Of a stretch of DNA of 64,000 bases, positions 5,377 through 62,542 are shown in pieces. Within the stretch, counting starts at the first letter, position 1. Each line of letters starts with the position of its first letter. Location: the IMG/VR virus record IMGVR_UViG_2061766007_000234; one strand, given 5' to 3'. The notes below the pieces were generated by a model. It ran no database searches. It saw only the letters and a list, made by a program, of their open reading frames with translations, and was not told where the DNA came from. The translations under genes and the position numbers were made by a program. This DNA comes from an uncultured virus (IMG/VR IMGVR_UViG_2061766007_000234). Its lineage: Duplodnaviria; Heunggongvirae; Uroviricota; Caudoviricetes.

Positions 5377-5544
5377 TTGGAAAACTGGTTTAGATGCCCA
5401 AAGTGCAACAAGCCGTTGCTCAAGATTACTGAAAACAGCGTGGTCAAGAATGAGATTTACTGCCGATGCTGCAAGACTTCTTTTGACGTTGAGATTGAGG
5501 GCTTGAAAGTGATTAAGGCAGAAAAGAAGGTAAAGACGGCTTAA
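5377..5544 (+). CDS. Mu Com-like zinc-ribbon regulator
   Basis: TTG start after GAGGGG; FRCPKCNKPLLKI...EIYCRCCKT follows the Com family pattern RCxxCxxLL...IxCxxC. Confidence 0.7.
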   Translation: MENWFRCPKCNKPLLKITENSVVKNEIYCRCCKTSFDVEIEGLKVIKAEKKVKTA

Positions 5545-5648: not shown

Positions 5649-5720
5649 CGCAGGTTGGGGAAGTGGTATCCCGTGAGTTTCATTCGCTCGATGTCGGCGG
5701 TTCGATTCCGTCACCTGCTA
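5649..5720 (+). tRNA. tRNA-Met(CAT)-like gene, atypical, possibly pseudo
   Basis: Cloverleaf: acceptor CGCAGGT/ACCTGCT, D arm GGGA/TCCC, anticodon arm TGAGT/GCTCG with loop TTCATTC, T arm GGCGG-TTCGATT-CCGTC. Confidence 0.7.
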
Positions 5721-16991: not shown

Positions 16992-18038
16992 ATGGTACGC
17001 ATGTACGTAACGGAAAGTGTTTCGCAGGAAAGTTTCGATGTGACTGAACTTCTTGTCAAGGCTTCCTATACTACGACAATAACAGGGCAGGCAGGGCAGT
17101 TATCTTTTACGCTGAAAAGAGACCCGAATAACGTGCTTAAGGTGTCTTTAGGTTCTTTAGTGTGTTTCTGGTCGAATGATACAAAAGTTTTCAAGGGTTA
17201 TATGTTCAAAATAGAGACTTCTGAAAAAGAAGAATACGACATTTTGGCTTATGATACCATGAGATATTTGCAGAACCATGACTACTATTTTATAGAGGGC
17301 GGCAAGAAAACTTTCATGCAGTTCTTTTCTGATATATGCGGTGCTATAAATGTACCGTGGACGCTCGGAATGGGAGTTGCGCCGCCTATGGACATGCTGA
17401 CACAGCAGTTTTTTGCCGACAAGTCATATTTTGATATGATTGAGCATTATATAGACGAAATGAACACGAAGAACACGCGGACAAGATATTTCCTGCGCGA
17501 CAACTTCGGCAAGCTTGAGCTAAATGAAATAACGGCTGCTTTCAATTTCGGGCTAGACGGCATATTAGGCGGCAGTCCGCTTGTTATCGGTGATAAGTCG
17601 CTTTTGACAGGCTATCACTACGGTATGGATATAGACACGAACACTTATAACGAAGTGTTCCTTATGGCAGAAAGTGACGAACAGGGAAGCGATGGCTCTA
17701 AGGGTAAGCATATTGCCTATGCAGAGAACGAGCAGAGGGCTATAGACAGATACGGCTTGCTTAGAAAAATAGAAACCGTCCAGAAAGGTATGACAGAAGC
17801 GCAGATTCAGAATTATGCAAAGCTTCTGCTTGATGTCGGGAAGCAGCCGACAAAATCAATGAACCTTAAGGCGATAGGCTTTGACGGTATTTATGCAGGC
17901 GCAGGCTTTGTAATGTGGCTTGAAAAGCTTCATATAGCTTCAAACATGTATGTCATAACGGCGACACATGATTATGAAGGCGGCAATCATACAATGTCAC
18001 TGGACGTTGAGGCAACGGAGGTAACGGAGATTCTATGA
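16992..18038 (+). CDS. baseplate hub protein (XkdQ-like)
   Basis: AYD.MRYL.N, LRDNFGKL, I.RYGLL, H.M.LD. Confidence 0.85.
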   Translation: MVRMYVTESVSQESFDVTELLVKASYTTTITGQAGQLSFTLKRDPNNVLKVSLGSLVCFWSNDTKVFKGYMFKIETSEKEEYDILAYDTMRYLQNHDYYFIEGGKKTFMQFFSDICGAINVPWTLGMGVAPPMDMLTQQFFADKSYFDMIEHYIDEMNTKNTRTRYFLRDNFGKLELNEITAAFNFGLDGILGGSPLVIGDKSLLTGYHYGMDIDTNTYNEVFLMAESDEQGSDGSKGKHIAYAENEQRAIDRYGLLRKIETVQKGMTEAQIQNYAKLLLDVGKQPTKSMNLKAIGFDGIYAGAGFVMWLEKLHIASNMYVITATHDYEGGNHTMSLDVEATEVTEIL

Positions 18039-27568: not shown

Positions 27569-27859
27569 TCAGCCGTCAACAATTTTTCTTATCATATCAA
27601 GTTTATTTTCAAGCTCTGTCACCTTACCGGCAAGCGGATTCGTTTCTTCCCCGGTTACAAGAAATTCTACAGTTGTATTCAAAGCTCTTGCAATTCGGGT
27701 AGCTTGTGCCGCATCTGGCAGACGGTTATAGAAAATCTGCTGTTTCAAGTTGCTGAAATTCAAGTCGGCAGACTTTGCAAGCCCCTCTTGAGTTGTAAGA
27801 CTTTGCTTTATGAGAACTTTCACGCGATTCCAAAAATCAATTCCGTTTTCATTCATCAT
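27569..27859 (-). CDS. XRE-family repressor 1
   Basis: TQEGLA...RLPDA.....IARALNTTVEFLVTGE. Confidence 0.85.
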   Translation of the reverse strand: MMNENGIDFWNRVKVLIKQSLTTQEGLAKSADLNFSNLKQQIFYNRLPDAAQATRIARALNTTVEFLVTGEETNPLAGKVTELENKLDMIRKIVDG

Positions 27860-27875
27860 TTAATTATCGGCAAAA

Positions 27876-27962
27876 AAAGTTTTGAAAAAAGATATTTTTT
27901 ACTTGACAAAGTTTTTGAAAGAAATAATAATTACAGCATAAAGTTTTTGAAAAAAAACTTTT
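27876..27962 (+). promoter_or_regulatory. divergent promoter with three operator-like repeats
   Basis: AAAGTTTT(T)GAAA at about 27876, 27908 and 27940; TTGACA at 27903. Confidence 0.65.
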
Positions 27963-27970
27963 AATTCTTA

Positions 27971-28060
27971 AAGGGTTTTTGTCTTGTAACGCTCCAATGG
28001 CAAAAGCCCTTGTGCTTTTGGGCTGTGTGAGATTGAGCGTACTCATGCAGCCTTTTTTTT
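27971..28060 (+). promoter_or_regulatory. kissing-loop leader attenuator 1
   Basis: 13-bp hairpin with loop ACGCTC, then 11-bp terminator with loop GAGCGT and T8. Confidence 0.65.
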
Positions 28061-28072
28061 AAGGGGTCAAAC

Positions 28073-28324
28073 ATGGAATCGGACGTAAACAAGCTTGAGA
28101 AAATGCTCTTGCAGCAGGTTGAGCTGTTAGGCAGTGATAACCTTGCAGACGCTGACAAGGCGAAGCTTATGATTGAACGCTCAAAAGCGATGTCGGAGCT
28201 TGCTGACAGCTACGTAAGCATAAACAGAATGAAGCTTGACGTAGTTAAGGAACTCAATCAAAACGGCACTCTTTACGAGAAATATCTCGGCGTTGAGATG
28301 CCGCCAGTCGGAAAGCTCAAATGA
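28073..28324 (+). CDS. hypothetical protein paired with HNH gene
   Basis: L..Q.E.L...IERSKA...LA pattern; ATGA coupling. Confidence 0.7.
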   Translation: MESDVNKLEKMLLQQVELLGSDNLADADKAKLMIERSKAMSELADSYVSINRMKLDVVKELNQNGTLYEKYLGVEMPPVGKLK

Positions 28325-29034
28325 AGCATTTCAGAAAAATCTGGGACAAGGAAAAGCACGACTGGATTTTTGCCCATAAAGACTTGAACCGTAATGAAAG
28401 CTACGAGCTTTTCTGCAAGGCGTTTCCAGATGCTGATGTTTCAAGAATTGCCTATTTCAACGAGCGGTCAAGAATCGGTGCAAGCCGCTGTGATTCGGCG
28501 AGAGGTCATAACAGAAAGCCAAAGCCTTTATACAGCGAGCAGATAAAGAAAGGCTACGTGCAGATTAAGATAGCACAGCCTAGTGTCTGGATAAGCAAAG
28601 CTAAATGGGTGTACATGGAAACGCACCCGTGGGAAGATTTCAGCGAACGGAGCAAATACATCTTTCTTGACGGCAACAGCAGGAACTTTGCCCCGGACAA
28701 CATCGAGAGAGTGCCGTTAAAGCTCATGGGCATATTCAACATTATGGGCGGAACGGCTGAAACGCCGGAGCTTACAAGATTAAGAATTGCGCAGGCTAAG
28801 CTTAAATTAAAGACACTGGACGCAGGGGAAGAACTCGGTCTTGTAGTTCGCTTAAACAAAAATAGCGGTCGGCGATTCCGTGAAGACGTAAACGCTTCCG
28901 CAAGGGAATACAGGAAAAGGCCCGAAGTAAGGGAAAAGCACAACGCAAGCAGGCGTGAATATTACAGGCGAATGAAAAAACCGAACAGCCAGAAAAATGG
29001 CGTGAATTGCAGAGAAAGCATAACGAATATTTGA
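28321..29034 (+). CDS. HNH endonuclease-like protein
   Basis: GYVQIKI...W..K...V....P, IFLDGN..NF..DN; C-terminus may be frameshifted. Confidence 0.7.
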   Translation: MKHFRKIWDKEKHDWIFAHKDLNRNESYELFCKAFPDADVSRIAYFNERSRIGASRCDSARGHNRKPKPLYSEQIKKGYVQIKIAQPSVWISKAKWVYMETHPWEDFSERSKYIFLDGNSRNFAPDNIERVPLKLMGIFNIMGGTAETPELTRLRIAQAKLKLKTLDAGEELGLVVRLNKNSGRRFREDVNASAREYRKRPEVREKHNASRREYYRRMKKPNSQKNGVNCRESITNI

Positions 29035-29068
29035 AAGCATACTACAAGCGGAAAAGGGAGGAAAGAAA

Positions 29069-29455
29069 ATGATAATAGGCTGTTATTGCAAACCTTACAT
29101 AATAGAGCTCGACGGAAAGCCCTTTGAAGTTAAGGGCGAAAAACTTGTCGGAAAGTTCATCAGAAAAGACAAGATTTATTTCCGGGGCGTTGTCTTTGAT
29201 GATGACGATGCTTCCTGCGGCGACACAGTAGTGCTGACAAAAAAAGAGTTTGAGGAGCGTGTTGAAAGATGTGTCGAGATACTCGGACAGCCCGAAAAGT
29301 TTGACCGCAACTATTATGAAACTTGGAAGAACGGCGGTCTTATGAACCAAAAAGAAGTAGACAGCTTTTCCGAAGGTCTTAACCGTGAGCCAGAAGAAAT
29401 TGCATTCCGCGCAGGCTTTCTTGTGGGACTTTATAAGCAGAGGACGGATGTATGA
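29069..29455 (+). CDS. hypothetical protein
   Basis: GGAGG upstream; ATGA coupling to next gene. Confidence 0.7.
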   Translation: MIIGCYCKPYIIELDGKPFEVKGEKLVGKFIRKDKIYFRGVVFDDDDASCGDTVVLTKKEFEERVERCVEILGQPEKFDRNYYETWKNGGLMNQKEVDSFSEGLNREPEEIAFRAGFLVGLYKQRTDV

Positions 29456-31155
29456 CAGTAAATCAGCTGATAGCTGAACAGCACAGAAATAATGAAGAAA
29501 CGGAGTTTTATCCAACAACTTTTGAAATTGTCGATTGCGTGGCTAAATGGATAGCGACACACGGCGAATTCACTAACGAAGTTCTTGACATAGGGTGCGG
29601 AAACGGCGGTTTCTTTGAGAAACTGGATAAAACGGACTATTTCAACAGCTCTGAATATAAAGACAAGAATTACAACAATAAAATCGGCAAATCGTACAAG
29701 AAATACGGCATCGAAAAATCGTATACACTTGCGGAACAGCTGCCCGATGATGTGATTCTGCTCGGCTCTGACTTTATGACGAACACGCTTATTGACAAGA
29801 AGGTCGGCTGCATTTTCTGCAACCCGCCGTATTCGCAGTACGAGGTATGGGCAGAAAAGATAATACTTGAGGGAAACGCTGACAAGATTGTTCTTGTAAT
29901 ACCGGAACGTTGGAAAAACAACGAACAGATTAAGGAAGCTCTTTTCCAGAGAAAATACAAAGCAGAAGTTATCGGAAACTTTGATTTTCTCAATGCGGAA
30001 CGCAAGGCTCGCGCTGTTGTCGATGTTGTCGCAATCAAGCCGGACGTAACAAGCTACAACGGTAGAAACTATGACAATAAGGCGACAGACCCTTTTGACC
30101 TATGGTTCGATTCAACATTCAAGCTCAACGCCGAAAAGCAGAAAGAGCATGAATACGAAGAAAACCAAAAGAAGCGAGATGAAATCATAGCGAGCGGCGA
30201 CACTGCCGAAAACCTCGTGCAGTTCTATAACGCCGACATGCAGAAGCTTTATGATAATTACCGTGCACTGGAAAAGCTGGATGCTGATATTTTCAAAGAA
30301 TTGAAAGTTGACGTGAAGATGCTCAAAAGCTCATTAAGGGAACGGCTTAAAGGCTTGAAGCTTCTCTATTGGGATTTGCTTTTCAAGAAATATGACAAGA
30401 TAACGGCACGGCTTACAACAAAAGGTCGTGACAAGGTTGTTAAGCGGCTTAACGACAATACGGCGATAGACTTCACTATTGAGAATATCTTTCAGCTGAC
30501 AATGTGGATTATCCGGCACAGCAACACGCTTTTTGACGAACAGCTCACAGACTTTTTCTTTACGCTTGCCAGAAGTGAAAACATACACAGGTACAAATCA
30601 AACCTGCGTTGGAATGATTCAGACTGGAAGTATTTGAAAGACAATCTGACAGAACACGGCTCATTCAGAAAAGACAGAGCAGTTAAGACACTCAAGAATA
30701 TCATGCTTGACTACCGCATTATAGTAACCGACTGGAGAAACTTTGACATGGACTGGTCACATTCACGGCTTACGGATTCATGCAGAAACTTTCTCTATGA
30801 CATGAGCGTGATAGCTGAAAATCTCGGCTTCAGTCTTGATTTCAAGATACCTGAAAAGTACGAAGAAATTGATTTTGATGACTGGAACAATTTCGACATA
30901 CACACAAAAGACGGCAAGCTTTTCTGCAATGTCAAACTCTATAAGAACGGCAACCGTCATATAAAGTTTTGTAAAGAATTCATGCAGAAGCTTAATGTCG
31001 AAATGGCGCGTATCTGTAAATGGATTCATTCTAAAGAAGAAGCGAAAGAAGAATTCGGACTTACAGAAAAGGAAATAAACGAAGCTTGGAACAACAATAT
31101 GAAAATCGCAATCGGGGAAGGCAAGAAACTTTTAGGACTTCCAGAGGTGGTATGA
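29452..31155 (+). CDS. DNA amino-methyltransferase with DUF4942-like C-terminus
   Basis: EFYPT, VLDIGCGNG (SAM binding), NPPY (catalytic), AERKARA, KLYKNGN.HIKF. Confidence 0.85.
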   Translation: MTVNQLIAEQHRNNEETEFYPTTFEIVDCVAKWIATHGEFTNEVLDIGCGNGGFFEKLDKTDYFNSSEYKDKNYNNKIGKSYKKYGIEKSYTLAEQLPDDVILLGSDFMTNTLIDKKVGCIFCNPPYSQYEVWAEKIILEGNADKIVLVIPERWKNNEQIKEALFQRKYKAEVIGNFDFLNAERKARAVVDVVAIKPDVTSYNGRNYDNKATDPFDLWFDSTFKLNAEKQKEHEYEENQKKRDEIIASGDTAENLVQFYNADMQKLYDNYRALEKLDADIFKELKVDVKMLKSSLRERLKGLKLLYWDLLFKKYDKITARLTTKGRDKVVKRLNDNTAIDFTIENIFQLTMWIIRHSNTLFDEQLTDFFFTLARSENIHRYKSNLRWNDSDWKYLKDNLTEHGSFRKDRAVKTLKNIMLDYRIIVTDWRNFDMDWSHSRLTDSCRNFLYDMSVIAENLGFSLDFKIPEKYEEIDFDDWNNFDIHTKDGKLFCNVKLYKNGNRHIKFCKEFMQKLNVEMARICKWIHSKEEAKEEFGLTEKEINEAWNNNMKIAIGEGKKLLGLPEVV

Positions 31156-31252
31156 TAAAGCATGATAAATATAACAATGTTATATATTATTAAATGTATA
31201 CAATATAAAGAAATAGCTTGAGTTTTTCCATAAGAAAAAGTAAGATAATTGT

Positions 31253-31339
31253 GTAGGACTTTTGAAATATACTGGACTTTTCAAAAGCCTTGCGCTTTTA
31301 GCCGTGGGAGTAGTCCAGTAACTCTTGCGGCTTTTTTTT
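31253..31339 (+). promoter_or_regulatory. kissing-loop leader attenuator 2
   Basis: Hairpin loop TACTGGACT (31270-31278) is the exact complement of terminator loop AGTCCAGTA (31312-31320); 12-bp stem and T tract. Confidence 0.75.
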
Positions 31340-31364
31340 ATCCTTCGGAAATAGTGAGGTGTAA

Positions 31365-31955
31365 ATGAACGAGCTTGCTTTGATATTCAAAAATGATGTT
31401 GCTTATGCAGATTCAAGAGATATTGCGGCATATTTTGGAAAACGTCACAGAGATGTTTTGCGTGATATTCGCAACATGCTGAAAGCACTTGGAGAAGGAG
31501 AGCGCAATTTTGCGCACTCGTACATAAACGCACAAGGAAAAGAACAGCCTTGCTATCAGCTTGATTTTGATACAACGATTACGCTTGTAACTGGATATGA
31601 TGTGAAATTGAGAAGTAAGATTGTCAAACAGTGGCACAGACTTTTGAAGGAACGCTCAAAGGTTCGTGACTATTCAAAAGGTATACGGCACGACTTTACA
31701 GACACCTTAAAAATGCACGGCTACGAAAAACAGTATGAATACATTCAGACTTCTATGCAGATGAAGAAACCTTTAGGAATAACCGCAAGAAAAAAAGACA
31801 TGACAAAGGCAGAAATTCAGAAAATAACCGCTGCTGAATATCTTGCAGAAGCTATGCTGTCAGATGAAAAAGGCTATCACGAAGTAAATCCTGTTTGCGT
31901 TGAAGCAAGTGCCGAAATTGACAGGATATTAAGCCGTAAAAGGATAACAGCATGA
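31365..31955 (+). CDS. Rha family regulatory protein
   Basis: DSRDIA..FGKRH.DVLRDIR, SYINAQGKEQPCY, LVTGY. Confidence 0.9.
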   Translation: MNELALIFKNDVAYADSRDIAAYFGKRHRDVLRDIRNMLKALGEGERNFAHSYINAQGKEQPCYQLDFDTTITLVTGYDVKLRSKIVKQWHRLLKERSKVRDYSKGIRHDFTDTLKMHGYEKQYEYIQTSMQMKKPLGITARKKDMTKAEIQKITAAEYLAEAMLSDEKGYHEVNPVCVEASAEIDRILSRKRITA

Positions 31956-34005: not shown

Positions 34006-34094
34006 TATCAGAAATGATTGATATGGTGTTGACAATAAATCACAAATGATATATTATCATCATATAAAAATTATCAATCATAACTGATTGATAA
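34006..34094 (+). promoter_or_regulatory. divergent promoter with three ATCA-N4-TGAT operators
   Basis: Sites near 34007, 34039 and 34077 (last extended: TTATCAATCA-TAAC-TGATTGATAA); TTGACA-17-TATTAT. Confidence 0.75.
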
Positions 34095-34168
34095 AAACAA
34101 AAAGGGCGTCGCCCTATAAAAGACGGCTTAAATAATTTCACGCCTTATTTAAGCTGTTTTCAGCTTAT

Positions 34169-34312
34169 AAAAGCATTCTGATTGTCTTGGTGTGAACTGA
34201 AACCTTGAATGAACGCCTACATCATGGTTTCGGTAAGGCAGTCAGAGTGCTTTTTTATTAAGCAAGCCTTTATCTGTGTGACGGTCGCCAAACTTACAAC
34301 ACAAATAAAGGC
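34169..34312 (+). promoter_or_regulatory. structured leader of antirepressor gene
   Basis: Long stem GCATTCTGATTGTCTT/AAGGCAGTCAGAGTGC plus T6, then GCCTTTAT/ATAAAGGC hairpin next to the SD. Confidence 0.55.
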
Positions 34313-34323
34313 AAGGGAGTTTT

Positions 34324-35019
34324 ATGAAAAACTCAAAATTCTTATCGTCAGATTCTGCAAATTCTTTAACTACCAAAGAGCTTGCTGAACAGCTGAAAAC
34401 CAGTCCAAAGGTTATTCTTGAAAATGCAAAAAAATGTCTGCCTAACAAGAAAATTGAAAACGGCAAGCCTACTTACTGGACTAAAGCAGAAGTGACAATT
34501 CTTGTTGACTATACAAAAGCGAATAGTCATCGAAATGATACAACCTTTACTAATTTAGTAAAGGTTTCGGAAACTGACTTAACACCTGCCTTAAAAATCA
34601 AAAAAGCTTTTGACCTCATGCAAGAGGGCTATAAAGAAGAGCTTGCACGGCTTGAAGCTATCAACAACGAGCAGAAGCAGAAACTTCTTGAGCAACAGCC
34701 AAAAGTAGAAGTTTACGACAACTTTGTGGAGCGCAACAAACTGACAAACTTCCGCGACATGGCGGCAAAGCTCGGCATGAAGCAGACTGAATTTATGACA
34801 ATTCTCAAGGCAAAGTACATCTATAAGACAACCAACGGCGAATACCGCGCCTATGCAGACTATCAGAAATATTTTGCCATAAGAACATTCCCGAAGGGCG
34901 TTGATAAGACAGGCGAACAGCTCATGCTCACGCTCGAAGGTGCTTCTTTCTTCCTTGACCGCTACGGTAACGGCAAGGCGGTTGAAGCAATCGCTGACAA
35001 AATCATGGGCAGTGTATGA
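34324..35019 (+). CDS. phage antirepressor (KilAC/Ant C-terminal domain)
   Basis: QQPKVEVYD.F, FRD.A.KL, L....YIY, Q..LT.EG. Confidence 0.85.
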   Translation: MKNSKFLSSDSANSLTTKELAEQLKTSPKVILENAKKCLPNKKIENGKPTYWTKAEVTILVDYTKANSHRNDTTFTNLVKVSETDLTPALKIKKAFDLMQEGYKEELARLEAINNEQKQKLLEQQPKVEVYDNFVERNKLTNFRDMAAKLGMKQTEFMTILKAKYIYKTTNGEYRAYADYQKYFAIRTFPKGVDKTGEQLMLTLEGASFFLDRYGNGKAVEAIADKIMGSV

Positions 35020-40424: not shown

Positions 40425-40868
40425 ATGGAAAAGACAAAAGCTGTAATGAAAATTGAAAGCTTCTCCAATAAAGACGGCACTCTGCTTCTTTCGGTTTCCG
40501 ACTTCGGCGTAAGAACTTTACTGCAAAGTTTAGTTGACCTTTGTAAGCAAAAACACGGCGGTTACGTTAAGCTTGAATTGTCAGCTCCATATCCGCCACG
40601 CACGACAGGGGTAGGGTCGCAGAATAATAAAATTTGGGCGATGATAACGCAAATCTGCAACCATACAGGCTACACGCTTCCCGACATGGAAGACTATGCA
40701 AAGCTTCGTGCGGTAGTCCGGGGCTATCCTTACCGAGAGAACCGAATAACAGGCGAGATAAAGCCTTACAGCATGACGGAGATAGACACGGTACAGGCAG
40801 GGCTACTGATAGACGAGCTTTACCAGATAGCCGCCGAATCTGGGACGGAGATTTATGAAAGTTCGTAA
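40425..40868 (+). CDS. NinB/DUF1367-like protein
   Basis: RT....QN...WA....I and S.......LI..L...AAE pattern. Confidence 0.55.
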   Translation: MEKTKAVMKIESFSNKDGTLLLSVSDFGVRTLLQSLVDLCKQKHGGYVKLELSAPYPPRTTGVGSQNNKIWAMITQICNHTGYTLPDMEDYAKLRAVVRGYPYRENRITGEIKPYSMTEIDTVQAGLLIDELYQIAAESGTEIYESS

Positions 40869-41062
40869 TGACAATAGTAACAAAAAAAGTTATAATTAAT
40901 TTGCAAAAGCAAATTATTTTTAATTTGCCCGAGCAAATTATTCAGAGCAATGAAGAAGCCATCCACATTCTTGATTGCTTTGGCAGTCACTCGAAAGAGT
41001 TTTATGCCGCCTTGTTAGTGGATGAACAGGGCGGCTTTTTTTTTAAGCAAATGGGAGCGTAA
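40868..41062 (+). CDS. hypothetical protein containing tandem palindromes
   Basis: TAATG coupling; palindromes read as NLQKQIIFNLPEQII. Confidence 0.45.
   Translation: MTIVTKKVIINLQKQIIFNLPEQIIQSNEEAIHILDCFGSHSKEFYAALLVDEQGGFFFKQMGA
40897..40941. repeat. palindrome TAATTTGC-N4-GCAAATTA, tandem copies 2 and 3
   Basis: TAATTTGCAAAAGCAAATTA at 40897 and TAATTTGCCCGAGCAAATTA at 40921. Confidence 0.85.
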
Positions 41063-41260
41063 ATGAAAGTATACGGTTATGAAGTTTTTGAAAATGAAAT
41101 AGGCAGTATCTCAATCATGCAGAATCCGGGGCATTATGATGAAGATATAGCAGGCAATGCGAGCGTGTGGGTAATGTTTACACCAGAACAGATAGACCGT
41201 CTATGTGAAGATTTGCAGAAAGTAAAGAACGAAATGCTCGAGGGTAGAAATAATGGCTAG
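41063..41260 (+). CDS. hypothetical protein
   Basis: GGAG upstream; abuts neighbours. Confidence 0.65.
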   Translation: MKVYGYEVFENEIGSISIMQNPGHYDEDIAGNASVWVMFTPEQIDRLCEDLQKVKNEMLEGRNNG

Positions 41261-42119
41261 AAAAAGTGATTTCAGTTCTTTCGTTTTTCCAGAAACAACA
41301 AAAAAACAGATAGACGCAATGCCGACAGCAGAAATGAAGCTTAAATATTATACAATCGTATCTGATTACGGTATGTATAATATTGAGCCAGACAATCTTT
41401 CTGAAATGGAAAACCTTATATGGATTCCAATGCGTGATTTGATAGACCATTGCAGAAAATCTCATGGCGGTGCGCCAGAAAATAATCAAAATGCCTGCAA
41501 AAACAAACAAAACAACCTAAACAATCAAAACAACGTTGTTTTTAATGAAACAATTAAAACAACCTTTATTAATGATAATGATAATCTTAATGATAATCAT
41601 AATCATAATCTTAATGTAAATGATAATGATAACGGAGAAGGAGAAGAAAAAGAGAAAGAACAAGAAAAACAAAATATTTCTCTCTCTCCAGAACCTTGTT
41701 TAGATATTAATATACCTAAAGACTACGCTAAACAGGTGTTTGATATACTTAAAGACAACAACTTACCGTGCTGTCTTGGTAATTACATAAGCTTTATGCA
41801 GTCGGACTTTAAGTTTGCACTGGAAACACTGCATAGCAGGGCTGATTTAAGGGGGTTGCACAGTGACATGGTGCTAGGTGCGTTGAATAACTATGCCCTA
41901 GTAATTAATAACCCGAATACTTGGCAGGGGTGGAAGAACAAAAAGAGCTTTGACAGATTCGTTTCGTGGGAGCGGTTCAAAGACTTTCTGCCGGACAGGT
42001 TTTGCTTAGATAACTTTTTGGACAGGTCTACTCCACAGCCGAAGCAGGCGCAGAATCAGACAGTCGGAATAAACCGTGCTCTTGAAATACTTAGGGAGGT
42101 GCAGAATGACCAAAGATGA
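41253..42119 (+). CDS. replication initiator (DUF6291-like N-terminus)
   Basis: SFVF, I..YG, GGAP.NNQNA.K, (N-x) repeat linker, position in replication module. Confidence 0.75.
   Translation: MARKSDFSSFVFPETTKKQIDAMPTAEMKLKYYTIVSDYGMYNIEPDNLSEMENLIWIPMRDLIDHCRKSHGGAPENNQNACKNKQNNLNNQNNVVFNETIKTTFINDNDNLNDNHNHNLNVNDNDNGEGEEKEKEQEKQNISLSPEPCLDINIPKDYAKQVFDILKDNNLPCCLGNYISFMQSDFKFALETLHSRADLRGLHSDMVLGALNNYALVINNPNTWQGWKNKKSFDRFVSWERFKDFLPDRFCLDNFLDRSTPQPKQAQNQTVGINRALEILREVQNDQR
41499..41633 (+). repeat. AT-rich iteron-like repeats within initiator gene (candidate origin)
   Basis: Several AAACAA copies, palindrome AAAACAACGTTGTTTT, then an AATGAT/AATCAT/AATCTT hexamer array. Confidence 0.55.
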
Positions 42120-53046: not shown

Positions 53047-53394
53047 ATGCCGTTTAAGCCGGGAGTATCTGGAAACCCAAACGGAAGACCTAAAAAGGGT
53101 GATTCTTACACAGAGTACATAGATAAGGCAGTAAAGAAGCTTAAAAGCGTACAGAAAGGAAAGGACGGTTCTGTCATTAATAAATATAAGGGCAAAGCAG
53201 TTCTTGCTATGGCACTGGTAGACCTTGCAACAAATAAGGAATATCCGCCACAGATACGCTTGCAGGCGATAAAAGAAATAATCGAAAGAAATGACGGCAA
53301 AGCTCCGCAGTATGTTGATATGCTGGCACAGGTCAACGGCGAGAATAACAATAGTGTGAATATAACAGTTCACGAAATAGCGGAGCTTAAATAG
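53047..53394 (+). CDS. terS: terminase small subunit (DUF5681-like), module A
   Basis: FKPG.SGNP.GRPK, AIKEI.ER.DGK..Q; directly before TerL. Confidence 0.8.
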   Translation: MPFKPGVSGNPNGRPKKGDSYTEYIDKAVKKLKSVQKGKDGSVINKYKGKAVLAMALVDLATNKEYPPQIRLQAIKEIIERNDGKAPQYVDMLAQVNGENNNSVNITVHEIAELK

Positions 53395-54707
53395 TGAATT
53401 ATGAATTACCGCCTTTTGATGTATTCATGCGTGATTATATAGGGGAAGAAAAAGACCCCGAGCAGAAATACAGACAAGTAATGCTGTCAAAAAAAAGGTA
53501 TATAACGAACAAAGGCGGACGAGGTAGTAAAAAATCTTGCGATACGGCTCTGAAAATCATTTATTTTATGATGTATTATTACTTTATGTATAAAGTAAAG
53601 CCGCATGTCCTTGTTATAAGACGCTATTACAACACACACAGAAACTCGACAAGAGCACAGCTTATATGGGCAATAGAAAAGCTCGGAGCACGTGAATTAT
53701 GGAATATTCCGAAGGGTGAGAATACTTTGACTTTCAAGTATTCCGGTCAGCAGATTCTTTTCCGTGGAATGGACGACCCTCAAAGTATTACATCTATTAC
53801 AGTATCAGACGGCAATTTGTGCTGGGTTTGGATAGAAGAAGCCTTTCAGATAGTAAATGAAGAAGATTTTAATAAAATAGATATGTCAATCCGCGGCAAG
53901 TTACCGCCGGAATTGTTCCACCAGTTCATTCTTACCTTCAATCCGTGGAGCGACAGGCATTGGCTGAAAGCGCGGTTCTTTGACGCCCCGGACGAAAACA
54001 CGCTTGCCATAACAACAAACTACATGATGAACGAGTTTCTTTCTGAATCTGACATACGGCTGTATGAGATTATGAAAGAACGCTACCCCAGACGCTACCG
54101 TATAGAGGGCTTGGGCGAATGGGGAATTGCAGAGGGCTTGATTTTCGAGAACTGGCATGAAGAAGACTTCGACATAGACGAGCTTATAGAGAAGAACAGG
54201 AACAAGCGGACGGCAAGGGGGCAGACGGCTTTCTTCCAGTGCTGCGGCCTCGACTTCGGATACACAGACCCTTCAGCTTATGTTGCCCTTTACGCCGACA
54301 TTAAGGACTATAAGCTTTACGTCTATTACGAGATGTACGAAATACAGATGGAGAACCGCAAGATTGCAAGTAAACTTATTCAAGACGGTTTCGGCGACTG
54401 CATTATTCTTGCCGATTCAGAAGACCCTAGAACAATAAGGGAGCTTTCTTTATTGGGCTTGCACGGCATAAGGGGAGCTAAAAAGGGAAGCGGCAGTGTG
54501 CTCGGCGGAATTCAGAAATTGCAGGATTACGAGATAATAGTACACCCTCGCTGTCAGCACTTCATAGAATCAATATGCAATTACGCATGGAAGAAGGACA
54601 GGGTAACGGATAAAATTCTTCCCGAACCCGAACACGAGTTCTCGCACCTCATGGACGCTATGCGCTATGCTACGGAAAATCTGCAACGCTTCGGAATACA
54701 GGTGTAG
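53394..54707 (+). CDS. terL: terminase large subunit, PBSX family, module A
   Basis: KGGRGSKKS Walker A, WIEEA Walker B, LTFNP, GLDFGY.DP, ADS.DP, H.MDA.RYA. Confidence 0.95.
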   Translation: MNYELPPFDVFMRDYIGEEKDPEQKYRQVMLSKKRYITNKGGRGSKKSCDTALKIIYFMMYYYFMYKVKPHVLVIRRYYNTHRNSTRAQLIWAIEKLGARELWNIPKGENTLTFKYSGQQILFRGMDDPQSITSITVSDGNLCWVWIEEAFQIVNEEDFNKIDMSIRGKLPPELFHQFILTFNPWSDRHWLKARFFDAPDENTLAITTNYMMNEFLSESDIRLYEIMKERYPRRYRIEGLGEWGIAEGLIFENWHEEDFDIDELIEKNRNKRTARGQTAFFQCCGLDFGYTDPSAYVALYADIKDYKLYVYYEMYEIQMENRKIASKLIQDGFGDCIILADSEDPRTIRELSLLGLHGIRGAKKGSGSVLGGIQKLQDYEIIVHPRCQHFIESICNYAWKKDRVTDKILPEPEHEFSHLMDAMRYATENLQRFGIQV

Positions 54708-54710
54708 AAA

Positions 54711-54887
54711 ATGAAAGAAATACTTTGCACAACATGCGCCGCATGGGTGGACTGCGGCAAGAAAGACGGCAAGCCATACGGATTCTGTCTGTGTCAAGAC
54801 TTGTTCACTTATACAGCAGAGACGAAATGCGCCGACTATGTGAACGGCACGGCAATAACGGAAGAAGAGTTTGAAAACGCAAAATAA
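54711..54887 (+). CDS. small Cys-rich protein (58 aa)
   Basis: Translated by hand, MKEILCTTCAAWVDC...; between TerL and portal. Confidence 0.55.
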   Translation: MKEILCTTCAAWVDCGKKDGKPYGFCLCQDLFTYTAETKCADYVNGTAITEEEFENAK

Positions 54888-54905
54888 TTTGCCCGAGCAA
54901 ATTAT
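54884..54905. repeat. palindrome TAATTTGC-N4-GCAAATTA, copy 4
   Basis: ATAATTTGCCCGAGCAAATTAT, upstream of portal promoter. Confidence 0.85.
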
Positions 54906-54924
54906 AGACTTTTGAAAAACACTG

Positions 54925-54963
54925 TGCTATACTTTCATTAGAACCTTTAGGGTCTGTTTAGGT
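54925..54963 (+). promoter_or_regulatory. extended -10 promoter plus late-leader motif (portal)
   Basis: TGCTATACT 54925-54933; AGAACCTTTAGGGTCTG 54940-54956; ACCT can pair with AGGT SD (weak). Confidence 0.65.
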
Positions 54964-54968
54964 AGCGA

Positions 54969-56486
54969 ATGGAAAACATACAGAAACAGACCGAATCGAC
55001 AATTTTTTCCCCGAACTTATCACCTGCTGTTGTCGCACAGATTATCGTCAACAACGGCAAGAACTCGCCGCAAATCAGCGACATAAAGACAGCAGAAAGA
55101 TACTTTGACGGACACTCAGACATCGAGAAAAAACAGCGCGTCTACTACGACAAAGACCGCAATCCGCATGACAATCCGGCGGCAAACAACGCAAAGATTA
55201 AGTCAAACTTCCTGCGTCAGCTTGTTCAGCAGAAACAGGATTACGGATTTGCCAAGACTTTCGTTTTGAAGCTTTCAACAGAGAAGCAGGACGAAGTGGA
55301 CTTGTCGACGGACGAATACGGCTTGGCATGGAAGCAGTTCTGCGACAAGACACTTTTCAAGTTAGCTTACACCCTTGCAGGGCAGGCTGTAAACGGCGGT
55401 ATTTCGTGGACTTATCTCTGGATAGACGAAAACGGCGATTTGCAGATGAAGGACATTCCGGCTGAACTTGTTTATCCAGTATGGCATGACAGGCAGCACA
55501 CGGAGCTTGACAGGCTTGTATACAACTATCTGCAAGTCAGATACAACTCTGAATCAGCCGACACAGTTGAGTATGCTGAATACTGGACTAAAGAAGAAAG
55601 ATACCTTTTCAATGTGTCTAACGCATACGGCGTGGAAGCTGCTCTACTTGACGGAGAGGGAAACCCGATATACACGCACATGACAGGCGGTGAATCTTGG
55701 GGCAAAATCCCTTTCATTGCTTTCAAGGCAACTGATGACGAAAAGCCGCTTCTGAACTTCATCAAGGCGCATATCGATTCATACGACAAGCTTGATTCAA
55801 ACTCAATCGACAGCCTTGTAGACGATTTAGACCCGCTCTTGGTGTTCAAGGGAATCAGCCCCAATGTCAAAGACCTTATCGAAGCAAGGGAGCTTGCGAA
55901 AGTTACGAGAACCGTTTCGCTTGACGCTGACGGCGATGCTCATTTCATACAGGCACAGACGGCTATAACTGCGTATCTTGAGAAGTTGCAGGCAATCAGA
56001 AAGGACATTTTCAAGTTCGGCTACGGCGTTGACACACAGGACGCACGCTTCGGCGGCAACCCGAATCAGCTTGAAATCAAGTCGCTTTATCAAGACCTCG
56101 ACACATACACGGACGGGCTTGAGCGGCAGTTCCAGAACTTCATCGACAATTTCAAGTATTTCTTCGATATGTGGTACGAGCTTACAGGAAAAGGCTCGTT
56201 CGACATTGCGCAGTCTTATAAGGTGCTTGTGAAGCTTGACCGCTCTATGATGATTAACCAGTCGGCACAGATTGACGATACAGTCAAGTTAGCGAACACA
56301 GGCGTATCGCAGAAAACGATTATGGAGTTCAATCCGGTCGTGCAGGACGTTGACTTAGAGCTTGCGAGAATCGAGGAAGAAAAAAAAGAACGCGAAGCGG
56401 AGAATCCGCTTTTCAACTTCCCGAAAGATGAACAAGAAAACGAAGAAGAAGAAAATAAACCAGAAAATGAAGAGGTAGAAGAATGA
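54969..56486 (+). CDS. portal protein, SPP1 gp6 family, module A
   Basis: Y..G..DI, NF...LV.QK..Y, WGKIPFI.F, ID.YD, LY.DLD, D...EL.RI.EE. Confidence 0.92.
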   Translation: MENIQKQTESTIFSPNLSPAVVAQIIVNNGKNSPQISDIKTAERYFDGHSDIEKKQRVYYDKDRNPHDNPAANNAKIKSNFLRQLVQQKQDYGFAKTFVLKLSTEKQDEVDLSTDEYGLAWKQFCDKTLFKLAYTLAGQAVNGGISWTYLWIDENGDLQMKDIPAELVYPVWHDRQHTELDRLVYNYLQVRYNSESADTVEYAEYWTKEERYLFNVSNAYGVEAALLDGEGNPIYTHMTGGESWGKIPFIAFKATDDEKPLLNFIKAHIDSYDKLDSNSIDSLVDDLDPLLVFKGISPNVKDLIEARELAKVTRTVSLDADGDAHFIQAQTAITAYLEKLQAIRKDIFKFGYGVDTQDARFGGNPNQLEIKSLYQDLDTYTDGLERQFQNFIDNFKYFFDMWYELTGKGSFDIAQSYKVLVKLDRSMMINQSAQIDDTVKLANTGVSQKTIMEFNPVVQDVDLELARIEEEKKEREAENPLFNFPKDEQENEEEENKPENEEVEE

Positions 56487-59217: not shown

Positions 59218-59667
59218 ATGGGTAATAATCCGAACATCGTGGCGCAAGGGGCGGCAACTCGCTTCTCGGCAACTAATCAGCCAGCACGGCGCGGGCGCAT
59301 TCCGTCGAAACTTAAAAAGTTCGTAAAGGATAACAGAGTCTCAAAGTCCGACGTGGACGCTATTTTCTCTAACATCATTTTTGGCAGTACGCTGGAAGAA
59401 TTGCAGGATATGGTCAAGCCGGGCAACAAAGAAAAACTGCCGGTCATAGTTGCCCTGCTTATTTCCGCATTCATTGCGGACATCAAGAACGGCACACTTC
59501 ACGAGGTAAATACCGTGCTTGACCGCATCTACGGCAAGGCTACACAGCAGCTCGACATCGGCGAGGTGAAGAACGACATTCCGGAAGACCCGGACGAGCG
59601 GCGGGCTTTGGCGGAACAGATAAAGAAAGAAATCGGGGCGTGGCGTGGCGCGGACGAAAGAGAATGA
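59218..59667 (+). CDS. terS: terminase small subunit, module B
   Basis: RFS..NQP...GR, LDRIYGK..Q; overlaps TerL start. Confidence 0.75.
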   Translation: MGNNPNIVAQGAATRFSATNQPARRGRIPSKLKKFVKDNRVSKSDVDAIFSNIIFGSTLEELQDMVKPGNKEKLPVIVALLISAFIADIKNGTLHEVNTVLDRIYGKATQQLDIGEVKNDIPEDPDERRALAEQIKKEIGAWRGADERE

Positions 59668-61099
59668 CGGTGACGAGCTTGAGAAACTTCTCTATCTAAG
59701 GCGGCTTGAGGCAGTAGACCATCATCTTAATTTCATGATGTACACATGGACGAACTGCGCGGAGCCTTTTGTCGTGGGGTTTCATACTCAGCGAATCTGC
59801 GCGGCAATAGATTATGCAGTCGAGCACTACAGGAAGGGAATTTCGACTTTTTGGGTTATAACAGTTCCTTTCCGCCACGGCAAGAGCGAGATAATCAGCC
59901 GCAAGCTGCCCGCACATTTTCTGGGGCTGTTCCCGGACAGCAAGGTGATACTTTGCGGCCACACAGAAGCGTTGACGGAAGGGTTCTCAAAGACTAGCCG
60001 CAGCATCATCAAGACGAAGCAGTACAGGCAGCTTTTTCCGAATATCCGTGTAGACCCCGAAAGCGCGTCCGGGGCGCACTGGAAAATAAAAGACCACGAG
60101 GGCGAATGCTTCGCTTCGGGCTTGCTCGGAAGCCTTTCCGGACAGGGGTATAACCTCGGTTTGCTTGACGACTACTGCCGTAACCGTGCAGATGCGGAAA
60201 GCGACACCTTGCGAGAAAAGATGTGGAACGCGTTTACTAATGACTTTATGACGCGCCGTGCGCCTGTTTCTATAACGATAGTGCTCGCCACTCCTTGGCA
60301 TGTTGACGACATCATCGGGCGGCTCAAGAAGCGCATAAAAGAAGATCCGGAATTTCCGCACTTCAAGTGCCTTTCATTTCCGGCCATGAGCGACAAATAT
60401 CCACAGGGCGTTCTGTTCCCGGAGCGGTTCGGCAAGAAGTGGTACACGCAGCAGAAAGCCGTGCTCGGTGATTACGGCTTCCAGTCGCTCATGCAGCTTG
60501 AGCCGGTTAAGCGCGGCGGAAACATGCTCAATACGGAATGTATTCAGCGGCACATGTCCGCTGCGGAATTTCCGAAAGGCTTGCGCTGGATGCGTATATG
60601 GGACTTGGCGCATACGGCAAAGGAACGTGCAAAGGCAGACCCGGACTGGACAAGCGGAACGCTGCTTGCGTTCAGCATTCAGGAAGGTATGCCGCATTTG
60701 TGGATTCGGAACGTCAACCGCATGAGGGCGAACGCGCCGGAGCGTGACGCGAAAATAAGGACTGTAACTACTCTTGACGGTCCGTATGTGAAAATCGGTA
60801 TCGGAAACAGTTCCGATGCAAAGGACACGATAGCGACCCTGCGCAAGATTCTGCAAGGAAAGCGCATGGTGCTTGCCGTGAACGAGAACAAAGACAAGGT
60901 TGTCAGGGCGACGCCGCTTGAGCCTATCTTTAAGGCCGGAAACGTGCATGTCGTGCAGGGCGAGCCCTGGCTTGATGAATGGATAGCGGAAGTCAATGCG
61001 TTTCCGTTCGGAGCGCATGACGACCAGGTGGACAACCTATCGGCTGGCTATGCGATATGGCAGTCGCAGGGCGATACGGATGAACTTTATAAGTGGTAG
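59645..61099 (+). CDS. terL: terminase large subunit, module B
   Basis: PFRHGKSE Walker A, LLDD Walker B, TPWH.DD..G, WDLA, DK..RA, FP.G.HDDQVD. Confidence 0.93.
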   Translation: MARTKENDGDELEKLLYLRRLEAVDHHLNFMMYTWTNCAEPFVVGFHTQRICAAIDYAVEHYRKGISTFWVITVPFRHGKSEIISRKLPAHFLGLFPDSKVILCGHTEALTEGFSKTSRSIIKTKQYRQLFPNIRVDPESASGAHWKIKDHEGECFASGLLGSLSGQGYNLGLLDDYCRNRADAESDTLREKMWNAFTNDFMTRRAPVSITIVLATPWHVDDIIGRLKKRIKEDPEFPHFKCLSFPAMSDKYPQGVLFPERFGKKWYTQQKAVLGDYGFQSLMQLEPVKRGGNMLNTECIQRHMSAAEFPKGLRWMRIWDLAHTAKERAKADPDWTSGTLLAFSIQEGMPHLWIRNVNRMRANAPERDAKIRTVTTLDGPYVKIGIGNSSDAKDTIATLRKILQGKRMVLAVNENKDKVVRATPLEPIFKAGNVHVVQGEPWLDEWIAEVNAFPFGAHDDQVDNLSAGYAIWQSQGDTDELYKW

Positions 61100-61117
61100 C
61101 GAAAAGGGAGGATATAC

Positions 61118-62542
61118 ATGGGCAAGAAAGGAAACAGGCGGAACACTGTTGTTCGACGGACTGACGGCTGGCAGAATCTTATATCAGGCCTGGGGTCTGC
61201 AAAGACCGCAAAAAACAGTTTCACGCATCATGCGTTTTCGGGCGTGATGCAGGATTCTGAGCTTGAATCGCTTTTTTATGAAGACGGCCTTTCGGCGCGG
61301 ATAGTAAGCCTGCTGCCCAGCGATATGTTCCGCGAGGGCTGGGATTATTCGTTTCCGAAACTGGACGACCTTCAGGCGGCGGAACTTGCTGAAATATATG
61401 CCGGTGTCATGGAAGAGCTTGACGCGCATCAGAAAATCAAGGATGCGATGGTATGGCAGCGTCTTTACGGCGGCGCGGCAATCCTTATAAGCGTCATGGA
61501 CGGCTCTACGCCGGATAAGCCGCTCGACCCAAAGAAAATCCACACTATAGAACGTCTGCGCGTTATAGAGCGCACTGAAATAGACTTCAGCAACATCAAA
61601 TGGCAGACAGACCCGACAAAGCCGCGCTACGGTCTGCCGGAGATGTATCCTGTGAGATTCTATGTTCCGGGAAGCCGTCAGACAGAACAGACCATGAACG
61701 TGCACTGGACGCGCATTATAGAGCTGCACGGCGACACTCTGCCGCGACGTACAAAGACCGGTGTGAGCGCAGAAAACCGCTACTGGGGAATTTCGGCTCT
61801 GCAGCGTGCGAATGACCGGCTCAAATCGCTCGGTTCTTCACTCGGCAGCGTGGACCAGCTTTTGAGCGAGCTTGGCGTCGGCAAATTCAAGATTAAGGAT
61901 TTGGCGCAGCTGCTTGCTTCGCCCGAGGGCGAGGCGGCAATAAAGCGGCGCGTTGAGCTTATGGATTTTGTCCGCAGCACGTTCCGAAGCCAGTATTTTG
62001 ACACGGAAGAAGATTTCGTGCGCGACAACATCAGCTTTAACGGTGTGCCGGAAATCTTGCGCATCCTGTTCATGCTTGTTTCGGCTGACACCGGCTACCC
62101 GATGACGTACCTTTTCGGCCAGTCTCCGGCGGGCATGGACTCAACCGGCGAGAGCGACATGAACATTTATTACGACATGGTGCGCTCATTGCAGGTCACA
62201 AAATTGCAGCCGGTCATTCTTCGCCTTGTGCACATCATTTCAATCTGGAAAGGCATCGAGGAACCGTACATTGAATTCCGGCCGCTCGAAACGATGAACG
62301 ACAAGGAACGTGCGGAACTTGAGAAAGCGAAAGCTGACAAGGAAAAGGTGGAGGCTGACACATACAAGGCATATATCGATGCGGGCGTGCTTGAACCTTA
62401 CGAGGTGCGCTACTTGAAATACGGCACTACGCTTGAATCGATTCCAGTGCCGGAGGAAATGAAGATGCCGCCTGTTGAAGAAGCGCAGAATGAACCGCCG
62501 GACGACGGCGACAGTTCGGACGATGATTCGGAGGACGGCTAG
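61118..62542 (+). CDS. portal protein, DUF1073 family, module B
   Basis: DGW.N...GLG, RLYGG, VH.TRII, WG.S.L, P.T.LFGQSP.G..STGESD...YYD. Confidence 0.88.
   Translation: MGKKGNRRNTVVRRTDGWQNLISGLGSAKTAKNSFTHHAFSGVMQDSELESLFYEDGLSARIVSLLPSDMFREGWDYSFPKLDDLQAAELAEIYAGVMEELDAHQKIKDAMVWQRLYGGAAILISVMDGSTPDKPLDPKKIHTIERLRVIERTEIDFSNIKWQTDPTKPRYGLPEMYPVRFYVPGSRQTEQTMNVHWTRIIELHGDTLPRRTKTGVSAENRYWGISALQRANDRLKSLGSSLGSVDQLLSELGVGKFKIKDLAQLLASPEGEAAIKRRVELMDFVRSTFRSQYFDTEEDFVRDNISFNGVPEILRILFMLVSADTGYPMTYLFGQSPAGMDSTGESDMNIYYDMVRSLQVTKLQPVILRLVHIISIWKGIEEPYIEFRPLETMNDKERAELEKAKADKEKVEADTYKAYIDAGVLEPYEVRYLKYGTTLESIPVPEEMKMPPVEEAQNEPPDDGDSSDDDSEDG

Follow-up and report, generated by a model that had tools for sequence, protein, structure and literature searches.

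The stretch analysed here, the window, comprises 64,000 nucleotides (nt) of the IMG/VR virus record IMGVR_UViG_2061766007_000234, from an uncultured virus of the Caudoviricetes, and is part of a 118 kb virus record with several prophage-like modules. It carries structured leaders, placed directly before phage genes, each with a first hairpin and an intrinsic terminator whose loops are complementary to each other. Two of them, E1 and E2, had been described in an earlier note made from the letters alone, and their common plan of hairpin 1, linker, terminator hairpin and T tract is borne out by our analysis, each ending in a large-loop intrinsic terminator with eight T residues (T8). The four loop strings of that note were recovered at 27989–27998 (ACGCTCCAAT), 28032–28040 (ATTGAGCGT), 31270–31278 (TACTGGACT) and 31312–31320 (AGTCCAGTA). 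Two more leaders of the same logic, E3 (40943–41044) and E4 (34120–34256), had been missed. Below, L1 denotes the matching segment in the loop of hairpin 1 and L2 its counterpart in the terminator; lengths of helices are given in base pairs (bp).

27903–27931, plus strand: promoter-like site of E1, TTGACA-17-AATAAT (11 of 12 consensus positions, consensus match only)
27940–27962, plus strand: small 5′ hairpin of E1, P0 (AAAGTTTT / AAAACTTT), read from the sequence
27971–28011, plus strand: hairpin 1 of E1, 11–14 bp, with L1, ACGCTC(C)AAT, at 27989–27998
28012–28019, plus strand: linker of E1, TTGTGCTTTT, read from the sequence
28020–28060, plus strand: predicted intrinsic terminator of E1, stem 28020–28053 (11–12 bp), 10-nt loop, T8 at 28053–28060, −17.3 kcal/mol
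28032–28040, plus strand: L2 of E1, ATTGAGCGT, inside the 10-nt terminator loop
28073–31155, plus strand: operon behind E1, coding for an 83-amino-acid protein, an HNH endonuclease (28321–29034), a 128-amino-acid protein and a 567-amino-acid DUF4942 methyltransferase-like protein (29452–31155)
31251–31295, plus strand: hairpin 1 of E2, with one bulged A and L1, TACTGGACT, at 31270–31278
Between hairpin 1 and terminator of E2, plus strand: linker, TGCGCTTTT
31300–31339, plus strand: predicted intrinsic terminator of E2, 12-bp stem 31300–31332 with three G-U pairs, T8 at 31332–31339, −16.3 kcal/mol
31365–31955, plus strand: gene of a Rha-family regulator behind E2 (Phage_pRha, 6.3e-19)
34120–34160, plus strand: first hairpin of E4, loop TTTCACGCC, with L1, TTCACGCC, at 34137–34144
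34169–34256, plus strand: long terminator hairpin of E4 with six T residues (T6); its only internal loop, on the 5′ side, is GGTGTGAA at 34189–34196
34324–35019, plus strand: Ant (KilAC) gene behind E4
40868–40896, plus strand: promoter-like site of E3, ATGACA-17-TATAAT (11 of 12 consensus positions)
40943–40982, plus strand: hairpin 1 of E3, loop GCCATCCACA, with L1, CATCCAC, at 40960–40966
41006–41044, plus strand: predicted intrinsic terminator of E3, stem 41006–41035, loop AGTGGATG, with L2, GTGGATG, at 41018–41024, and nine T residues (T9)

The match between the loops differs in extent from leader to leader. In E2, the 9-nt terminator loop consists wholly of L2 (AGTCCAGTA, 31312–31320) and pairs perfectly with L1 over 9 bp, the loop–loop duplex amounting to −12.6 kcal/mol. 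The pairing in E1 is not a perfect duplex, being composed of 6 + 3 bp, with ACGCTC facing GAGCGT and AAT facing ATT across one bulged C. E3 pairs over 7 bp; its linker is longer than those of E1 and E2 and holds a small GAAA hairpin. In E4, L1 pairs with the internal loop GGTGTGAA of the terminator hairpin over 8 bp, one of them G-U, and since the estimated chance of such a match is about 0.01, we regard this pairing as probable, not certain; the leader region 34060–34330 folds with a z-score of −10.1. A further pairing is open to the E1 linker, the GCTTTT of which can pair with AAAAGC in the 3′ arm of hairpin 1, and the same alternative exists in E2 and in G404b, the orthologous leader of E1 in the related virus record G404.

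On the plus strand, the two-hairpin fold of E1 and E2 reaches −36.7 and −33.3 kcal/mol in RNAfold, with z-scores of −4.56 and −4.45, and none of 200 shuffles folded as well, whereas the minus strand folds weakly (z of −2.45 for E1 and −2.05 for E2). Together with the G-U pairs in the stems, the weak minus-strand fold argues that the structure is an RNA feature of the plus strand. The core AAAAGCC(C)TTGYGCTTTT is found twice in the window against 0.00 occurrences expected. As read from the E1 and E2 sequences, the complementarity ends at the loop edges, and a single large palindrome could be ruled out, the loops but not the arms being mutually complementary. The predicted terminators of E1, E2 and E3 each consist of a G+C-rich hairpin followed by a U tract, with stems of 11–12 bp, T8, T8 and T9, and stabilities of −16.3 to −18.7 kcal/mol.

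The promoters are less uniform. Of the earlier claim that both leaders start right after promoters, the part on E1 is backed by a near-consensus site, and E2 has a weak site at 31162–31190 (9 of 12 positions), consensus matching being the basis for both; an alternative, weaker site for E2, TTGAGT-17-TAAGAT at 31218–31246, was read by eye. For E4, the putative promoter is likewise a consensus match only (11 of 12). The promoter region of E1 is kept upstream of G404b, as is a counterpart of the P0 hairpin. Each terminator ends 12–25 nt ahead of the next start codon (in E1, the first start codon of the operon lies 12 nt past the T tract), a gap without room for another promoter, and we therefore regard the elements as leaders, not as isolated small-RNA genes. 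Protein family matches agree with the gene context first proposed, namely an HNH/methylase operon behind E1 and a Rha gene behind E2, the latter adjoining a divergent CI-like repressor. E3 stands, inside the early region, before genes of no known function (41063–42119).

The loop complementarity stands out against several backgrounds. When 90 hairpin-plus-terminator pairs across the 118 kb record were scored, the highest values belonged to E2 (9), E3 (7) and E1 (6 contiguous pairs, plus 3 past the bulged C), and 84 of the 90 scored 3 or less; one other score of 6 came from a pair of 25–27 nt loops and is likely due to chance. Across ten leaders in five records, the upstream part and the terminator loop of the same leader match over 6–11 bp (mean, 8.7), against a mean of 4.1 and a maximum of 7 in the 90 non-cognate combinations, the maximum arising in long A+T-rich apical regions. 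Moreover, among the 105 unique simple terminators with 6–14 nt loops in the 932 kb examined, eight have an upstream complement of at least 7 nt, compared with two in the reversed-loop control and one in the direct-repeat control, and in seven of these eight the complement is L1 in a hairpin loop 31–50 nt upstream. The layout is regular as well: L1 is justified towards the 3′ side of its loop in seven of the ten leaders (0–1 spare nt on the 3′ side, 2–3 on the 5′ side), abutting the 3′ arm of hairpin 1, and the terminator loop is wholly L2 in six of the ten.

Relatives were taken from loci around Rha relatives in metagenomes and from two whole related virus records, G404 (54.8 kb) and G405 (104 kb). 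The following leaders were found:

G404a: 11 bp of loop pairing, before an ANT/KilAC gene
G404b: 10 bp of loop pairing, before an AntA gene
G404c: 9–10 bp of loop pairing, before the first helix-turn-helix gene of an early operon, beside a divergent repressor
G405a: 9 bp of loop pairing, before a methylase operon
G405b: 9 bp of loop pairing, before a small gene and Erf
L214: 9 bp of loop pairing, before a Rha gene
L297: 7 bp of loop pairing, before a Rha gene

G404a and G404b are clearly homologous to E1 and E2. In the alignment of these four sequences (A4), 97.6% of the stem cells are paired and 5 of the 22 pairs are changed on both sides; the percentage paired was reached in none of 500 shuffles and the count of two-sided changes in one of 500. 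Formal pair counting on the alignment was confined to the stems, and the loop–loop pairing was judged by the matrix of cognate and non-cognate combinations because the loops of the various copies are set out of register by MAFFT. The stem arms are 68–82% identical among the four sequences, compared with about 35% for both loops. G404b (L322, 17189–17276) shares promoter, 5′ hairpin and stems with E1 and has different loops. Thus, what had been read as natural covariation, the same fold with unrelated loops, extends beyond the original pair: complementarity is kept with different letters in paralogues and in homologues from other phage records. The 6-mers ACGCTC and GAGCGT lie in opposite loops of E1 (27989–28040) and G404b, as if the loops had been swapped, and templated copying at the DNA level is one possible origin of this arrangement.

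The earlier note could assign the leaders to no named family, and neither could we: in a search of Rfam 15 at E values up to 10, nothing in E1, E2 or E3 came near a family threshold, and at gathering score the only match in the window, as in 16 related loci, was a tRNA. Full-text literature searches, judged from listings and abstracts, yield work on guanidine-IV, cobalamin and antisense RNAs and no description of such phage leaders. The RNA design is therefore, within these searches, uncatalogued and without a published description, its architecture being likened to known systems. Relatives were scarce elsewhere, too. An exact-core search of IMG/VR (AAAAGCC..TTGYGCTTTT) returned 120 stretches, and among the matches listed there were chance occurrences only, mostly coding and none with the architecture; the conserved promoter string matched 13 stretches, one of which (in the G404 record) has a leader, the others being ordinary consensus promoters. 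A blastn search of GenBank phages with 27600–31700 found no match, and the Rha protein alone found no relative in IMG/VR. Among 88 hairpin-terminator pairs from 78 IMG/VR loci that hold distant relatives of Rha, no loop match exceeded 4, and a Rha profile matched a single one of 401 genomes of the family of G001, the query's own source. A covariance model of the four homologues (R1) recovers its own members at 77.8–92.8 bits; in 151 genomes of the same family it gave seven weak matches in six genomes, all ordinary hairpin-plus-terminator pairs without matching loops, and no leader of the E type.

In architecture, the leaders resemble the guanidine-IV riboswitch (mepA motif), which also combines a first hairpin and a terminator hairpin with kissing loops; the likeness is one of architecture only. 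According to the parts of the published account consulted, its kissing loop hinders completion of the terminator, and elongation of the stem shortens the linker and clashes with the kissing loop (PMC11611296). The same parts present kissing loop and full terminator stem as mutually exclusive, partly by way of the short linker, with read-through as the result (PMC11611296), an outcome like the one proposed here.

We favour, tentatively and with somewhat less than even confidence, the reading that E1–E4 and their relatives are promoter-proximal leader RNAs in which pairing of the hairpin-1 loop with the terminator loop serves as a sequence-arbitrary antiterminator and in which the terminated RNA acts in trans. 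What is observed is the fold, the loop complementarity and its persistence as the letters change, and the neighbouring genes; the functional steps we infer from sequence and analogy. Once the 5′ arm and loop of the terminator are transcribed, L2 would pair with the pre-formed hairpin-1 loop, hindering closure of the terminator stem, and RNA polymerase would read into the gene. Because L2 is transcribed ahead of the 3′ arm of the terminator, this pairing can form first and delay terminator closure, and because the terminator is the more stable structure, any antitermination must be kinetic. In seven of the ten leaders, L1 is positioned as in an H-type pseudoknot, with the new helix stacked on hairpin 1. 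From the stereochemistry of such pseudoknots, a closed stem is incompatible with a helix of 9–11 bp that takes up an entire hairpin loop.

Transcripts that do terminate would give an RNA of 85–100 nt (roughly 88 nt for E1 and E2) showing L2 in its terminator loop, and this short RNA would bind in trans to L1 of nascent leaders of its own kind, thereby enforcing termination. The trans step is suggested by the divergence of the loops beside conserved stems, different in each copy, which is the pattern of specificity determinants in trans-acting antisense RNAs. In countertranscript-driven attenuation (pT181, pIP501/pAMbeta1, and Anti-Q of pCF10), loop–loop contact with the nascent leader decides whether a terminator forms, and the loops, which determine specificity, vary between incompatibility groups. 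The regulators of those systems come from the opposite strand, whereas here L2, on the same strand, has the sequence that an antisense RNA would have. A consensus scan, which a weak promoter could escape, found no minus-strand promoter-like site downstream of the hairpins pointing back through E1 or E2; the minus-strand promoter-like sites within 27924–27953 and 31202–31230 are located upstream of the hairpins and face the other way.

Such a mechanism would amount to lock-and-key shut-off, or immunity, acting on antirepressor genes (Rha, Ant), early genes and accessory genes (HNH/methylase). The leaders found so far are followed by genes for Rha, ANT/KilAC, AntA and Erf, by methylase operons, and by an early operon whose first gene adjoins a divergent repressor. 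Such a setting has precedents. The c4 RNA of P1/P7, the CA RNA of N15, P4 CI (seqB with seqA/seqC) and Gifsy-1 IsrK are leader-derived immunity RNAs of the same strand, each coming from the leader of the operon under its control, that govern premature termination or expression of replication or antirepressor genes. As in these RNAs, a structured leader RNA is complementary to another site of the same transcript in E1–E4 (L1 and L2), upstream, in E2 and E4, of the antirepressor genes Rha and Ant. The parts of the source consulted (PMC4825925) offer two precedents: P4 CI RNA, and IsrK RNA, whose terminated form acts in trans on the read-through transcript of IsrK itself. The leaders resemble this family in their proposed working and are not members of it: the covariance models of C4, P4 CI and IsrK found no match at gathering score in the window or the 16 related loci, nor at E values up to 10 in E1, E2 and E3. 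Unlike those RNAs, the leader RNA is predicted to have its 3′ end set by an intrinsic terminator of its own, and nothing points to processing by RNase P. The sole target seen for it is the upstream hairpin loop; at the ribosome-binding site, downstream, none was found.

Several points weigh against antitermination by loop pairing. The terminator hairpins (−12.8 to −22.6 kcal/mol) are thermodynamically stronger than the loop–loop duplexes (−7.9 to −14.8 kcal/mol). Linker length ranges between about 5 and about 31 nt, and the steric argument fails for the long-linker leaders, as it does for E4 and the long-terminator relatives described below, the L2 of which lies in an internal or inner loop. 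Reading of E1 and E2 revealed no second target downstream, near the ribosome-binding sites, of the kind present in P1 c4 (a2/b2) and P4 (seqC). The loop pairings that we grouped as class A are almost all Watson-Crick, as opposed to the many G-U pairs in the stems, and templated copying at the DNA level could produce the same. In free RNA, L1 and L2 might mask each other. Finally, promoters, terminators and the regulatory role are themselves predictions.

A stronger form of the antitermination reading, which we hold to be rather unlikely, makes the system an RNA-only, self-addressed lock and key: the terminator loop of the terminated leader would kiss the hairpin-1 loop of its own kind and force termination, the hypervariable loop pair would be the specificity code of immunity, and the cassette would be mobile between phages. 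If so, a single phage could operate a number of orthogonal switches, placed on antirepressor, early and selfish-gene cassettes. More generally, if the pairing gates termination, it would provide protein-free and ligand-free control of phage antirepressor, early and accessory genes, with the specificity residing in an arbitrary loop pair of 7–11 nt, and would account for the way in which uncultured temperate phages of gut spirochaetes keep their induction genes silent; the leaders would then constitute a new RNA family for the catalogues and a source of naturally orthogonal, programmable transcription switches for synthetic biology.

The loop–loop pairing might instead lock or strengthen the terminator, giving a constitutive OFF state that an antiterminated polymerase or a phage antiterminator protein overrides, a possibility that we judge unlikely. 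It would account for terminators that look strong, with G+C-rich stems of 11–12 bp and T8–T9, for promoters near consensus, and for the need to keep antirepressor genes silent in a lysogen; moreover, the sequences and folds of E1 and E2 revealed no antiterminator helix of the classical kind that overlaps the arms of the terminator. The model for it is the lambda unit of PR′, 6S RNA and tR′, in which a strong promoter yields a short terminated leader RNA and the genes behind it depend on read-through; that unit heads the late operon, is opened by the Q protein and has no loop–loop complementarity. The present leaders, unlike it, occur several per phage with orthogonal loops, before early or accessory genes and not at a late operon. 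General protein family scans, none of them a search aimed at an antiterminator, turned up no Q-like family among 78 proteins and nothing N-like. A local hairpin, besides, folds without help, the pairing consumes the whole terminator loop and so strains rather than supports the closed stem, and in guanidine-IV, the sole characterised case of this architecture, the kissing loop opposes the terminator.

That the elements are stand-alone small-RNA genes, with a roughly 88-nt RNA whose only targets lie elsewhere and are reached in trans, and which precedes genes by coincidence, seems to us improbable. Promoter and terminator would indeed yield a discrete small RNA, and the L1 9-mer of E2, TACTGGACT, recurs exactly at 34474 (inside the Ant gene) and at 55581 (in a portal gene). 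Both copies, however, lie in coding sequence for Y-W-T-K, the match at 34474 extends by one flanking base only, and about one chance match is expected in 2 × 118 kb, so that both are probably fortuitous. The downstream genes would also be left without a promoter of their own in the 12–25 nt gap, and it would go unexplained why two loops of one RNA match in ten leaders.

The prospects are slimmer for leaders that act as sensors, in which a small ligand, an ion, temperature or a protein stabilizes or breaks the kissing loop in the manner of guanidine-IV. The two hairpins plus terminator are the architecture of that riboswitch, and the conserved linker and alternative pairing common to E1, E2 and G404b could be taken in the same sense. 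The loops that would have to form a pocket are, however, hypervariable (about 35% identity), whereas those of guanidine-IV are conserved and bind guanidine; 7–11 Watson-Crick pairs need no ligand, and none is indicated. No riboswitch model came near threshold, and cmscan of E1, E2 and E3 at E values up to 10 reported no guanidine or mepA family. The genes differ as well, exporters following guanidine-IV and phage regulators and nucleases (HNH, DUF4942, Rha, ANT, AntA), not transporters or metabolic genes, following the leaders, which show no association with export or detoxification.

One observation touches on the mobility of the unit. The promoter and leader of E2 (31200–31341) are identical in contigs of three other sequencing runs (X5, X7 and X9, from three studies); divergence from the window sets in precisely where the T tract stops, and another gene start follows. 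Promoter and leader thus behave together as a mosaic cassette. No loop variants of E2 were seen in matching RNA-library contigs. One X5 contig joins 29443 to 31129 and thus lacks the DUF4942 methyltransferase gene. Both this mosaic behaviour and the nearly exclusive Watson-Crick pairing of the class A loops would suit inverted repeats without RNA function, whether maintained at the borders of mobile cassettes by templated repair or recombination or arisen by chance, but we consider that explanation highly implausible, since chance is excluded by the controls, the G-U pairs of the stems exist only in plus-strand RNA, and a DNA-only process does not predict complementarity confined to hairpin loops and terminators just before genes.

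Around the E1 promoter (27872–27962), the motif AAAGTTTT(T)GAAA occurs three times: upstream, over the −35 element and spacer, and in the 5′ hairpin. It is kept in the orthologous cassette of G404b (L322, about 17100–17190), which makes it a candidate operator for a DNA-binding repressor. An open reading frame of 21 codons (27997–28061), running from the hairpin-1 loop of E1 to its T tract, was considered as a leader peptide and rejected, having no Shine-Dalgarno sequence and no counterpart in E2. A second copy of the module of small protein, HNH, DUF4942 and SLT, 55% identical, lies at 5450–9328 of L125 (about 111–115 kb in the record), directly behind an SSB gene and with no leader, which suggests that the E1 leader is an add-on to a module that in other places forms part of an operon. 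E3 is covered by an open reading frame for 64 amino acids (40868–41062) without family match, probably spurious, and the structured leader of Ant (34029–34324) holds a further hairpin at 34266–34312, ahead of the ribosome-binding site.

Before Rha-type genes, some of them in metagenome-assembled genomes (MAGs) of Treponema, three further leader architectures were encountered, in which an upstream segment matches the inner loop of a long branched terminator; the letters of the matching segments differ between relatives, and the architectures have no match in Rfam.

Long-terminator set 1, matching segments: CACAAAGT, TAAAGACG, CAAAGAACA, CACTATGA, AAGTATGA
Long-terminator set 2, matching segments: TAGAACC, TGATACC, TAGTACC
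Long-terminator set 3, matching segments: TTGACCGA, TTGGTCG
Loci with these architectures: L204, L205, L233, L235, L239 and L251 (about 130 nt before the Rha start); L206, L229, L234 and L240; L270 and L303

The tRNA found by Rfam in the window lies at 5649–5720. The 118 kb record holds at least two terminase/portal sets (53394–56486 and 59645–62542), two integrases and a myovirus-type structural module (2654–27000), and has the look of several prophages or satellites in tandem, not of a single phage. In genomes, the Rha protein is matched best by MAGs of Treponema or Treponemataceae (47–59% identity), and the runs in which this DNA occurs come from bovine gut metagenomes. A rumen Treponema is therefore the probable host, and the leaders probably sit in Treponema prophages.

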